Source: Candidatus Latescibacterota bacterium (GTDB taxonomy: Bacteria; Latescibacterota; UBA2968; GCA-2709665). From it: a stretch of DNA of 64,000 bases. The position numbers and the translations under genes are program-made. The DNA is taken from NCBI GenBank assembly GCA_965222075.1, contig OZ244937.1, forward strand, positions 320,001-384,000. The letters run 5' to 3'. The notes under the pieces are model-generated. The model had not been told where the DNA came from, did no database searches, and saw only the letters and a program-made list of their open reading frames with translations. The first letter of the stretch is position 1, and each line of letters begins with the position of its first letter. Positions 252-61,739 of the stretch are shown piece after piece.

Positions 252-311
252 CCTGCCTGCCCGCCTGCGCGCTGCGCGCGGGCAGGCGCCGGACTACGGC
301 CGGCAGGCAGG
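252..311. repeat. Nested pair of CCTGCCT...AGGCAGG palindromic elements (33 bp outer + 27 bp inner)
   Basis: cctgcctg[cccgcctgcgcgctgcgcgcgggcagg]cgccggactacggccggcaggcagg. Confidence 0.8.
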
Positions 312-23593: not shown

Positions 23594-23656
23594 CCTGCCT
23601 GCGCCGGATGCCCTGCCTGCGCCGAGTTCTGCTCGGCAGGCAGGTCGGCAGGCAGG
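23594..23656. repeat. Nested pair of CCTGCCT...AGGCAGG palindromic elements (30 bp outer + 33 bp inner at 23612-23644)
   Basis: cctgcctgcgccggatgc[cctgcctgcgccgagttctgctcggcaggcagg]tcggcaggcagg. Confidence 0.9.
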
Positions 23657-23680: not shown

Positions 23681-25150
23681 GTGAGCAGAAGATTCGAACC
23701 GATTGACCTCTCGCGTGTCCGAACCTTTCCCCTTTCGGAACGCCCCGGCAAGGTCTCTCTGGCCGGCTTCGCCACCCCGCCACAGGCGGGCGTCTCGTTC
23801 GGTGGTTTCTTAAGGGGGCTGCCGGAGATCCTGATCGGCGCGGAGTTCCGGAGCTTTGTCCGGGACCTTTCAGCGGCGGTTCGGGCGGAGAAGACCGTGG
23901 TCGCCGGGGTCGGCGGTCACGTGATTAAGTGCGGTCTTGCCCCTCTTCTTATCGATCTGATGCGCCGCGGGTGGGTCTCCGCCCTTTGTATGAACGGCGC
24001 AACGGCTATCCATGATGTTGAAATCGCGATGTGCGGCAGTACCTCCGACCTGCCTGCAGCGCAGGACGCTGCGCAGGCAGGGGACGTCTCCGCAGGGTTA
24101 GGGGATGGCTCCTTTGGCATGGCCAGGGAGACCGGCACGTTTATAAACGGCGCGATCCGGGACGCACCGGAGGGCTATGGGGCCACGCTGGGCCGCAAGA
24201 TCGTGGAGGCGGACCTCCCCTACAGGGAGCAGAGCGTGCTGGCCACAGCGTCTGAACTGGGGCTTACGGCAACGGTTCACGTGGCCGTTGGCGCCGATAT
24301 CGTCCACCAGCATCCCTCGGCCGACGGTGGAGACATCGGGCGGGCGTCATTCGAAGATTTCCGCATCTTCTGCGCCGTCGTCGCCAGCCTCCAGGGGGGG
24401 GCTTACATCAACATCGGATCGGCTGTACTCCTCCCGGAGGTCTTTCTCAAGGCCCTCACGGTGGCCCGCAACCTGGGGCATGGCGTTGCGAATTTTGTCA
24501 CCGCCAATTTCGATATGATTCAGCACTACCGCCCCCGGGTCAACGTGGTGGAGCGGCCCACCCTGGGCGGGGGCCGGGGCTATACCTTCACCGGCCACCA
24601 CGAACTCCTCATTCCCCTCCTGGCACAGTCCCTGCACGAGGCGCTCGAAGATCGGGCCGCGGCTGCCGAACGCAAAGTCGTCTCTTTGGACGAGGCCCTG
24701 GCCATTCGGGACCGCATGCGCGACATCGGCGCTACCGTCATTTTTACCAACGGCTGTTTCGATCTGCTTCACCAGGGCCACGTCACCTACCTGCAGAAGG
24801 CCCGTTCGCTGGGCGATGTGCTGATCCTGGGACTCAACAGCGACGATTCCGTCGGCCGCATCAAGGGCGCCGGCCGGCCTATCCTCCCCCTGGAAGACCG
24901 CGCCAGGGTGCTCGCCGGGCTTGAAGCGGTCGATTACATCTGCGTCTTCGCAGAGGATACGCCGCGTAATCTCATCCAGGCCCTCCTGCCTGACGTTCTT
25001 GTGAAGGGAGGGGACTATAAGGTGGATGAAGTCGTCGGACGAGAGGAGGTTGAGGCCGCCGGAGGCCGGGTGACCACGGTTCCGTTCGTCAAAGGCTGTT
25101 CCACGACGGATATTGTACAGCGGGTGCTCAAGACAGGGAGAGAGAGGTGA
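23681..25150 (+). CDS. Deoxyhypusine-synthase-like (GSU2086-type) domain fused to D-glycero-D-manno-heptose-1-P adenylyltransferase (RfaE2/HldC)
   Basis: GGHVIKCGL, NGATAIHD, FGMARETG, GSAVLLPEVFLK, GHHE; then FTNGCFDLLHQGH, GLNSD, KGGDY, STT. Confidence 0.85.
   Translation: MSRRFEPIDLSRVRTFPLSERPGKVSLAGFATPPQAGVSFGGFLRGLPEILIGAEFRSFVRDLSAAVRAEKTVVAGVGGHVIKCGLAPLLIDLMRRGWVSALCMNGATAIHDVEIAMCGSTSDLPAAQDAAQAGDVSAGLGDGSFGMARETGTFINGAIRDAPEGYGATLGRKIVEADLPYREQSVLATASELGLTATVHVAVGADIVHQHPSADGGDIGRASFEDFRIFCAVVASLQGGAYINIGSAVLLPEVFLKALTVARNLGHGVANFVTANFDMIQHYRPRVNVVERPTLGGGRGYTFTGHHELLIPLLAQSLHEALEDRAAAAERKVVSLDEALAIRDRMRDIGATVIFTNGCFDLLHQGHVTYLQKARSLGDVLILGLNSDDSVGRIKGAGRPILPLEDRARVLAGLEAVDYICVFAEDTPRNLIQALLPDVLVKGGDYKVDEVVGREEVEAAGGRVTTVPFVKGCSTTDIVQRVLKTGRER
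24049..24081. repeat. 33-bp palindromic element inserted in frame in a CDS
   Basis: cctgcctgcagcgcaggacgctgcgcaggcagg; removal gives acc tcc gag gac gtc = TSEDV. Confidence 0.9.
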
Positions 25151-26163
25151 TGGACCCGGAGCGGCTGAGGGAAATTCTGTCGGGGTTTGCCGGTAAGCGG
25201 GTGCTTGTTATCGGAGACCTGATGCTGGACCACTACCTCTGGGGACACACCGACCGTATCTCTCCGGAGGCCCCGGTGCCGGTGGTCGAGATCGAATCCG
25301 AGACGTTCCGTCCCGGCGGGGCGGGAAACGTGATCCACAACCTGCACGAACTGGGGGCTGAAGTTGCCGCTGCTGGTGTGATCGGTGACGATATCGAGGG
25401 GGAAAAACTCAAGGAACTCTTAGCTGCCGAGCGGGTTGACCTGAGCGGGATCGTTGTGGACCCGGCCCGGCCCACCACCTCCAAAACGCGCATTATCGCC
25501 CGCCGGATTATGGAGAGGGGAGGAGAGAGGGGGCTGGGCCAGCATATCGTGCGGGCCGATCGGGAAGTGCGCACACCGATTGCCGGGGCTGCACAGCGGG
25601 GGCTGACTGACCGCATTCGTGAAGTCCGAGGTGTGGATGCGCTTTTCGTGTCCGACTACGCCAAGGGGGTGGTTACCCCGGATCTGATGGATGCGGTGCG
25701 AGAAGGGATGCAGCGTCTGGATCGACCCGCAGTTGTGGACCCCAAGGGGCGCAGCTTTGAAAAATATCATGGCGTAACCGCCATTTCGCCCAATCAGGCC
25801 GAGGCCTTGGGTGCCTTCAACCTGGAAAGCATCGATGAGGAGACCGTTGTTGCCGCCGGCCACGAGCTGGTCAAACGGTTTTATCTCCAGACTGTCTTTA
25901 TGACCCGGAGCGAAAAAGGGGTCAGCCTCTTTGAGCAGAACGGCCAGGCTGTCCACATTCCTTCAACGGCCCGGGAGGTCCACGATGTTTCGGGGGCGGG
26001 GGATACGACGGCCGCCGTGTACACGCTTGCCCTTTTAGCAGAAGCTTCACACCGGGAAGCCGCCTGCGTTGGCAACCTGGCCGGAGGGGTTGTGGTCGGA
26101 AAGGTCGGTGTTGTGCCCGTGTCTGTTGAGGAGCTTCTCAAGGCCGGGAAGGATGTTTCTTAA
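25147..26163 (+). CDS. rfaE1: D-glycero-D-manno-heptose-7-phosphate kinase (RfaE1/HldA)
   Basis: GDLMLDHY, RISPEAPVPV, GGAGNV, SDYAKG, VDPK, DVSGAGDT. Confidence 0.92.
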   Translation: MMDPERLREILSGFAGKRVLVIGDLMLDHYLWGHTDRISPEAPVPVVEIESETFRPGGAGNVIHNLHELGAEVAAAGVIGDDIEGEKLKELLAAERVDLSGIVVDPARPTTSKTRIIARRIMERGGERGLGQHIVRADREVRTPIAGAAQRGLTDRIREVRGVDALFVSDYAKGVVTPDLMDAVREGMQRLDRPAVVDPKGRSFEKYHGVTAISPNQAEALGAFNLESIDEETVVAAGHELVKRFYLQTVFMTRSEKGVSLFEQNGQAVHIPSTAREVHDVSGAGDTTAAVYTLALLAEASHREAACVGNLAGGVVVGKVGVVPVSVEELLKAGKDVS

Positions 26164-61628: not shown

Positions 61629-61654
61629 GAACCCGGGTTCAGCTGTTCTTTTGC

Positions 61655-61696
61655 TTTTGGCCTTTTTCTTGTTCGCCCAGGAAAAAGGCCGAAAAA
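61655..61696. terminator. Inverted repeat after the Mrp module
   Basis: ttttggcctttttcttg-ttcgcc-caggaaaaaggccgaaaa. Confidence 0.5.
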
Positions 61697-61739
61697 GAAG
61701 GGCGCCTGCCTGCGTGGCGGCGTTCGGCGATATTTGCAC

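Follow-up and report, generated by a model that had tools for sequence, protein, structure and literature searches.

An in-frame 33-bp hairpin of a dispersed REP-like family in a conserved motif of a Latescibacterota GSU2086-family gene

How a 33-bp hairpin came to lie in frame inside a conserved protein motif is the question raised by a 64,000-nucleotide stretch of DNA from a Candidatus Latescibacterota bacterium (assembly GCA_965222075.1, contig OZ244937.1, positions 320,001 to 384,000; the whole stretch is called the window hereafter). The hairpin splits a GAG codon of a gene for a GSU2086-family protein. A preliminary description of the window took it for a mobile, frame-preserving parasite of coding sequence with the Rickettsia palindromic elements (RPEs) as precedent; the 33-bp sequence that it placed at 24049..24081, inside the GAG codon, was matched exactly. 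On the evidence given below, it is probable that the insert is one copy of a dispersed hairpin family resembling REPs (repetitive extragenic palindromes), that this family is mobile now or was so recently, and that the copy was inserted precisely and very recently, after the divergence of strains.

The insert, its host gene and the empty alleles

The host gene encodes two fused domains. Residues 7–316 match the NCBIfam profile NF052581, 'GSU2086 family protein', with 378.3 bits against a cut-off of 250, a family that the preliminary description had named. The match spans profile positions 1–300 with ten extra residues, which is near the length of the 11-residue insert. Residues 342–483 are RfaE domain II, a heptose-1-phosphate adenylyltransferase (TIGR02199, 203 bits against a cut-off of 181.5), and the start of the following RfaE domain I gene overlaps the stop of the host gene, i.e., the two have an operon context (Table 1). 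No match was returned when solved structures were searched with a profile of the host domain. In many phyla the GSU2086 domain stands alone as a protein of ~315 residues, and certain of these stand-alone members are labelled 'deoxyhypusine synthase' in some sources; in Latescibacterota it is fused to RfaE domain II.

The insert comes after host residue 122. Deleting the 33 bp gives back acc tcc gag gac gtc, i.e., TSEDV, and the predicted protein with the insert reads TS-D-LPAAQDAAQAG-DV, with the 11 added residues LPAAQDAAQAG that had been read from the window. In this predicted protein, a near-invariant Glu is turned into Asp and the next Asp-Val pair is shifted eleven residues downstream. 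The search of 41 related genomes revealed 11 other full-length orthologues of 474–480 residues and 64–95% identity. As expected from the preliminary description, none of the 11 carries the insert, and all have TSE[DE]V with an 11-residue gap opposite it. The same is true of 80 of 80 homologues from many phyla, which lack the 11 residues and keep [TS]SE[DE]V; when 68 database homologues are aligned, conservation in the Glu column is 90% or higher. Alignment of the DNA with five orthologues gives the empty site TCCGA/GGAT (the slash marks the junction) and no target duplication, as had been claimed. The borders of the insert cannot be shifted, since its last base is not the same as the base that precedes it, nor its first base the same as the one that follows. 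Because every orthologue is empty, the filled state is derived.

An 801-bp stretch around the insert is present in 20 public sequencing runs from nine studies, and the contigs of four of these runs (X9, X12, X14, and X15) were aligned. A 9444-bp contig of run X9, with a depth of 17, joins 24048 directly to 24082 ('skips 33, CC..GG') and has 0 and 1 mismatches over 349 and 419 flanking bases. The same joint is found in a 918-bp contig of run X12, which comes from a different study, and the contigs of run X14 break off on either side of the element, as a repeat would lead one to expect. Since two other runs carry the same gene, with 0–1 mismatches in ~770 bp, minus exactly 33 bases, these contigs indicate that the insert is polymorphic among near-identical strains. 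The empty alleles that had been proposed as a check in reads therefore exist.

The element itself (full 33-mer, CCTGCCTGCAGCGCAGGACGCTGCGCAGGCAGG) is composed of 9-bp outer arms that pair perfectly, a 4-bp inner stem (AGCG/CGCT), a 5-nt loop (CAGGA), and a 2-nt GC bulge on the 3' side. The term 'perfect-ended palindrome' thus holds for the outer arms, CCTGCCTGC and GCAGGCAGG; as a whole, with its loop and bulge, the hairpin is an imperfect palindrome and not a full one. The window holds 2 matches to the arm-gap-arm pattern and each of 100 shuffles holds 0, and the 9-mer arm is matched 10 times where 0.70 would be expected; chance origin of the arm pattern is excluded. The 33-mer folds with −16.2 kcal/mol as DNA (z −2.95; 2 of 200 shuffles as stable) and −26.7 kcal/mol as RNA (z −2.31; 6 of 200 shuffles as stable). 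A scan of the whole window with Rfam gathering thresholds found two tRNAs only. Identical copies lie elsewhere: the same 33-mer is found at genome position 3895296, its reverse complement at 2645957, and two more copies at two loci of a genome of the same genus (G001).

The hairpin family within and between genes

The source genome is a single contig of 5.36 Mb with 59.3% G+C. It contains 233 + 246 copies of the 9-mer arm, and its 911 8-mer arms form 673 clusters, of which 145 contain a hairpin; 102 of these 145 are a simple arm pair. Minimal hairpins number 132 genome-wide, and 79 of them are exactly 33 bp long, in 36 distinct sequences, with the other lengths mainly 30, 27, 31, 19, and 36 bp. 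When the 36 distinct 33-mers are compared, 127 of 144 cells of the inner stem are paired, in comparison to 32–66 of 144 in shifted registers. Two inner-stem pairs show switches between A-T and C-G, and all 36 have the GC bulge. The preliminary description had named the same loop in distant orthologues, or a lack of further copies, as observations that would speak against it; the loop is absent from the distant homologues, and the further copies include 27 other clusters that pass the strict genic test given below.

Family copies are also nested in the loops of other copies, at genome positions 998202 and 3208656 and in the composite just upstream of the host gene, and at genome 961766 a copy lies between the arms of an unrelated palindrome. 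When the outer 30-mer of the upstream composite is rejoined, it is identical to 30-mers at genome 1990253, 2047384, 3725874, and 3782993. This composite was tried as a second empty-site test, which failed, as synteny with G001 and a second relative, G004, ends at its right border (~23656). Homology with the loci of these two genomes stops at the composite, and the hairpins thus mark a synteny break. Part of the family rides in a larger repeat of ~250 bp: 12 of the 22 copies of the commonest 33-mer sit inside it and, being carried in it, are not independent events. Copies of this kind were removed before the flank statistics were computed. The ~250-bp repeat starts with GGAAGGGGCTTTTCCGCGC (28 copies of the core) and ends in the hairpin GGCCTTTTTCTTG...CAAGAAAAAGGCC (44 copies); examples are found at genome 391139, 1155662, 1905896, 2396314, and 3042246, and Rfam gave no match for it in the window. 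In addition, three identical 27-bp members lie at genome 1139014, 1139180, and 1139333, with spacings of 166 and 153 bp. This trio may be a tandemly repeated segment and is not CRISPR-like.

For copies inside genes, a strict test was applied: the frame had to stay open across the cluster and for 40 codons or more both before and after it, and both of these sides had to have a positive coding score, the score being a codon log-odds trained on long open reading frames (ORFs). In total, 28 of the 145 clusters pass, and the span of 25 of these 28 is divisible by 3. Their reading frames are xLPA...AQAG in 16, PAC...AGR in 9, and ACLR...RQA in 3. Apart from the host gene, 22 of 27 strict ORFs match Pfam families and five have no family. 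The struck ORFs include ATP synthase epsilon, Zn-dependent dehydrogenase, C25 peptidase, two sigma-54 activators, hydantoinase, PurL, histidine kinase, PepX, ABC exporter, UvrA-like protein, UvrD, amidase, GT1 glycosyltransferase, response regulator, and the type I restriction R subunit (HsdR). For ATP synthase epsilon, the match to the beta-sandwich takes 91 residues for 80 profile positions. The two sigma-54 activators (L037, genome 498712–500406; L055, 2829127–2831133) are paralogues with the same insert between the same flanks, QDLTVG[ACLRRDLPGRQA]GG; owing to these shared flanks, the insert was copied with the gene duplication and is not a second insertion.

Seven further genes were compared with five relatives, and empty sites were found for 7 of 7 (Table 1). 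In PurL, the two members lie in a linker and together add 18 residues. The DNA junctions are exact and free of duplication at CCCG/GGCC, CCGG/TCCG, GTGG/CGTC, CAAG/TGAA, and CAGG/GAGG, which makes six with the site in the host gene. Overall, exact insertions without duplication are shown at eight gene sites, i.e., the host gene plus seven.

These genic copies are a minority. By a looser greedy gene caller, 48 clusters fall within genes and 79 between them, with 14 more close to gene ends and 4 overlapping such an end. Clusters lie inside genes in 33% of cases, in comparison to 78% for random 33-mers; the family is thus depleted in genes and is not a specialist parasite of coding sequence. The intergenic copies do not favour convergent gene ends: they occupy 9 convergent, 19 divergent, and 51 unidirectional spacers, and the corresponding background counts are 322, 364, and 1752. 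Length variants other than 33 bp are multiples of 3 in 15 of 22 genic cases, in comparison to 10 of 22 intergenic cases, a pattern that fits selection acting after insertion. A bias toward multiples of 3 among the intergenic variants was considered and set aside as weak at 10 of 22. Freedom from stops in six frames was likewise rejected as an adaptation. It holds for 34 of the 36 distinct 33-mers, against 30.1 ± 1.9 in structure-preserving shuffles, and 57 of 2000 such shuffles reach 34; moreover, the 36 sequences are related to one another. The stop-freeness comes mostly from composition and structure, and frame preservation is a matter of the canonical 33-bp length plus selection rather than a demonstrated adaptation. 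The initial idea of a mobile, frame-preserving element that writes peptides into host proteins is supported with qualifications: the element is probably mobile, now or recently, and would add peptides where translated, while most copies are intergenic, the family is depleted in genes, and frame-keeping is not shown to be an adaptation.

The distribution among relatives was surveyed by scanning 41 genomes for CCTGCCTGC-N13-17-GCAGGCAGG, with a reversed-pattern control that gave 0 matches everywhere. The source genome has 85 matches, six other genomes have 81, 78, 70, 55, 30, and 15, and the same-genus G001 has 5, while 23 genomes have none, among them a congener of the 70-copy genome. Across the phylum, 21 of 168 genomes contain the pattern, and almost all of them fall in a single family (15 of 21 genomes plus the source genome); single copies occur in a few genomes outside this main family. 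Each copy-rich genome has a different dominant subfamily, and the gene sites filled in the source genome are empty in the 70-copy genome (G003) despite its copies. Eight hairpin sites of G001 were sought in the source genome: in one case the hairpin is shared at the orthologous position, another site is orthologous but has been rearranged, and the other six have no single placement. The shared copy implies that the activity of the family spans some time. The pattern of this distribution is one of repeated, lineage-specific bursts.

Table 1. Features of the window and of the source genome (genome coordinates are marked as such), with the empty-site comparison of seven further genes
Feature	Position	Strand	Remarks
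33-bp hairpin element	24049..24081	+	CCTGCCTGC...GCAGGCAGG; inside GAG codon
Host gene, GSU2086-family domain fused to RfaE domain II	23681..25150	+	489 aa; ORF and profile matches
RfaE domain I (heptose-7-phosphate kinase)	25147..26163	+	TIGR02198, 342 bits
Intergenic composite just upstream of host gene	23594..23656	+	30-bp member (23594–23611 plus 23645–23656) with 33-bp member (23612–23644) in its loop
60-bp composite family copy, upstream of response-regulator-like ORF	252..311	+	near-identical composites at genome 2040206 and 2253455
Partial copy of ~250-bp repeat ending in single truncated CCTGCCTGC arm	61640..61713	−	hairpin GGCCTTTTTCTTG...CAGGAAAAAGGCC
ATP synthase epsilon			insert absent from 4/4 orthologues; no orthologue found in G001
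PurL (L040)	genome 1160163–1160229 (inserts)		insert absent from 5/5 orthologues; 21-bp and 33-bp inserts, 13 bp apart
Hydantoinase			insert absent from 2/2 orthologues (closest orthologues only)
Response regulator			insert absent from 3/3 orthologues; identical 33-mer
Amidase			insert absent from 4/4 orthologues; variable region
UvrD			insert absent from 4/4 orthologues; 36-mer
HsdR			insert absent from 2/2 orthologues
Intact IS200-like tnpA (L031)	genome 2071937–2072296		147 aa; own flanking hairpins
tnpA pseudogene (L032)	genome 3018501–3018743		in-frame TAG
RAYT-like gene (L175/L176)	genome 3242101–3242871		256 aa; found by tblastn only, missed by PF01797 scan

Target preference, candidate mobilizers and rival explanations

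The flanks of the copies show a one-sided preference. When 63 de-duplicated 33-mers are oriented by the bulge, the left flank has C at −4 in 42 (p = 1e-9), C or A at −3 in 51, G at −2 in 33, and at −1 G in 33 or A in 20 (purine in 53), a motif written CMGR. On the right, a pyrimidine is found at +1 in 53 and G at +2 in 32. These bases belong to the target and not to the element, since the empty sites keep them. The commonest left tetranucleotide is CAGG (8 of 63), which is also the 3' end of the element itself.

Candidate mobilizers are encoded in the source genome (Table 1), namely an IS200-like tnpA, a tnpA pseudogene, and a gene resembling REP-associated tyrosine transposases (RAYTs). As a flanked 'master' copy, tnpA was rejected: no family hairpin lies at the intact gene, and near the pseudogene there is one distant, related hairpin. 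The RAYT-like gene has no family hairpin within 600 bp. Its orthologues in another genus are 80–82% identical, in comparison to ~60% for the RfaE domain of the same genomes, which suggests that this gene may have been horizontally transferred. A second RAYT-like group (L151–L154 and L158), found in genus g2 (G009, G021, G002, G020, and G018), is flanked by the palindrome CGAGGGCAGGGATGCCCTCG; in G021, compared with G009, a CCTGCCTGC hairpin is inserted right after the stop of the RAYT-like gene of this group. Two Y1-like copies are present in G003, one with family hairpins within 200 bp and the other without.

The favoured explanation is a REP-like family moved by an enzyme encoded elsewhere. 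The element would move as a single-stranded hairpin handled in trans by a transposase of the HUH/Y1 type (RAYT-like or IS200-like TnpA), which would join it 3' of a CMGR that resembles the CAGG at its own 3' end. Selection would remove copies that break genes and leave in-frame copies in loops and linkers; the host gene stays open because an insert of 33 bp that is free of stops in every frame does not interrupt it. By analogy, the clean insertions, the one-sided flank preference, and the insertion into hairpin loops resemble the 'peel and paste' movement of IS200/IS605- and RAYT-type systems. Several points count against this explanation. The CMGR motif is degenerate, the flank logo of the 63 copies has no GTAG or CGTC tag, and none of the transposase genes examined (the IS200-like tnpA, its pseudogene, and the RAYT-like genes) is flanked by the element. 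The RAYT-like gene of the source genome and its orthologues are, in four genomes, flanked by a different, GTAG-tagged REP, CACAAACTGACAGTTTGTGCTAC, which has only 4 copies in the source genome. A link to RAYTs was rejected, as neither the Y1_Tnp (PF01797) matches nor the RAYT-like groups track the copy number in the 41 genomes. The orientation of the element has no replichore bias (Fisher p = 0.37), and insertion of the IS200/IS605 type usually gives such a lagging-strand bias. Moreover, the gene calls come from a crude codon-score caller, and no contig from runs X9, X12, X14, or X15 spans the filled allele. The latter is supported by the assembly of the window and by word shares of 0.94–0.99 in runs X1–X7, the contigs of which were not aligned. 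The RNA contigs of run X15 stop short of the insert, and the peptide is a predicted translation.

Some of these points would suit mobility without a Y1/HUH transposase, which we regard as unlikely. Here an unrecognised enzyme, or replication and repair that copy hairpins by templated insertion, strand switching at extruded hairpins, or CAGG microhomology, would spread the family. Besides the lack of a hairpin-flanked Y1 gene and of replichore bias, one genome (G019) has 30 copies and no PF01797 match, and another (G004) has 0 copies and 32 matches; the identity of the top left flank with the 3' end of the element fits microhomology too. CGTC-type REPs likewise have no dedicated transposase, according to Di Nocera et al. 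2013 (PMC3733652). The PF01797 absences are weak, since the scan missed the RAYT-like gene of the source genome itself, and clean, exact 33-bp insertions at many unrelated sites, together with subfamilies that differ by genome, look like enzyme-defined units. A bolder version, which we hold to be doubtful, is that single 33-bp hairpins transpose without a dedicated RAYT, via another enzyme class or host replication and repair, in a family shaped for survival in genes through its 3n length, its lack of stops in six frames, and the mild Ala/Gln/Gly-rich peptide of its commonest frame.

Far less probable is that the hairpins are functional sites selected by the host, for protein binding, RNA stability, or termination, spread and kept by gene conversion and selection, with the genic copies as by-products. 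The conservation of the hairpin through compensatory changes and the intergenic position of 79 of the 145 clusters would agree with it, and such roles have been proposed for REPs in passages of PMC3733652. It sits poorly with 0 copies in close relatives and 70 versus 0 within one genus, with the lack of both a convergent-end preference and a T run after the hairpin, and with a strain-level insertion in an invariant enzyme motif, which is hard to see as selected. Least probable of all is an artefact of assembly or consensus, or a local tandem duplication as hinted at by AAQD/AAQA, i.e., by AAQ occurring twice in the peptide; the missing contig across the filled allele speaks for an artefact. 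The same 33-mer, however, lies at two other loci of the source genome and two of G001, and eight genes have the same kind of insert. In addition, the word shares in runs X1–X7 exceed what an empty allele would give by estimate, and the contigs of run X14 end at the element as at a repeat. Local tandem duplication was rejected on the identical 33-mers at unrelated loci.

Relation to known systems and significance

In its mode of insertion, the family resembles the IS200/IS605 systems and their non-autonomous derivatives, the single-strand transposition of which, with the element landing 3' of a short motif, is reportedly treated in Barabas 2008 and Ton-Hoang 2010, both cited in PMC3116915. Both are hairpin-defined, without the terminal inverted repeats on which a transposase would act, and both insert without duplication on the 3' side of a motif (CMGR here); the nested copies and the copy at genome 961766 would fit a single-stranded target. 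The present element differs in being a single 33-bp hairpin and not separate left-end and right-end hairpins, in its degenerate target in place of a fixed tetra- or pentanucleotide, in its lack of orientation bias, and in that no cognate TnpA was found. The small dispersed repeats (SDRs) of cyanobacteria, by Elhai et al. 2008, are said to be ~21–27 nt long, to contain palindromes, to be mobile as judged by presence or absence in otherwise identical sequence, and to be nested in one another and inside genes. We know of no transposase for them. Their sequence, length, and phylum differ from those of the element described here.

The RPEs, reportedly described by Ogata et al. in 2000 and 2002, share with the element the in-frame insertion of a palindrome that adds a peptide. 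They are the longer classic case, in which palindromic repeats lie in frame in unrelated housekeeping genes and leave the ORF intact; RPE-1 has ~100–150 bp and adds 30–50 residues, according to passages of PMC10969869. The element has 33 bp and 11 residues, its host lineage is unrelated, and its sequence appears to be unrelated as well. The RPEs thus remain a precedent in this one respect and are not the sole one, as passages of PMC3733652 already describe short REPs in frame.

Indeed, REPs are the closest class. In the passages of PMC3733652 considered here, they are 20–40 bp long and GTAG- or CGTC-tagged; in several species they are found within genes, with many in genes for replication or repair such as uvrA and uvrD, and intragenic in-frame cases are described in Opitutus terrae, Thauera, Xanthomonas, and others. 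Both groups are imperfect palindromes, short (20–40 bp) and rich in G+C, that are dispersed in tens to hundreds of copies. Compensatory changes in the stem set their subfamilies apart, and their occurrence among relatives is patchy. Neither has target duplication, some copies of both are in frame in real genes, and the UvrD and UvrA-like genes struck here recall those in PMC3733652. Unlike those REPs, the present family lacks a GTAG or CGTC tag and flanks no RAYT gene, i.e., it forms no REPtron. As to location, 79 of its 145 clusters are intergenic by the crude gene caller, and there is no enrichment at convergent genes. In Pseudomonas, REP doublets (REPINs) excise and singlets were not seen to do so, according to passages of Bertels and Rainey 2011 (PMC3116915). 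Here, by contrast, the polymorphic unit is a single 33-bp hairpin and not an inverted doublet, in line with the 102 of 145 clusters that are single arm pairs. Miniature inverted-repeat transposable elements are ~70–300 bp long, with the terminal inverted repeats of an insertion sequence and target duplication; the present element has 33 bp and no duplication at six sites.

A literature search of titles and abstracts found no Latescibacterota paper that has such repeats as its subject. The element belongs to a REP-like family that has neither a tag nor an adjacent RAYT gene and that lies in frame in dozens of genes. The kind of element is known. What is new is the family, the host phylum as far as the literature search shows, the mobility of a singlet, and the strike in an invariant motif, with the reservation that the supplementary tables of PMC3733652 may list inserts of similar size.

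The same gene with and without 33 bp in near-identical strains is a natural experiment on the movement of untagged, RAYT-less REPs, and the insert in the invariant motif is one on the tolerance of proteins for palindrome-encoded loops. The 28 to 48 genic copies and the bursts in single genomes of one family form a data set for a search for the mobilizer by phyletic profiling. For annotation, 11-residue inserts of this kind in metagenome-assembled genomes could pass for sequencing errors or for lineage-specific loops. If single hairpins do transpose without a RAYT, the family would still be producing new loop insertions in proteins of these symbionts.

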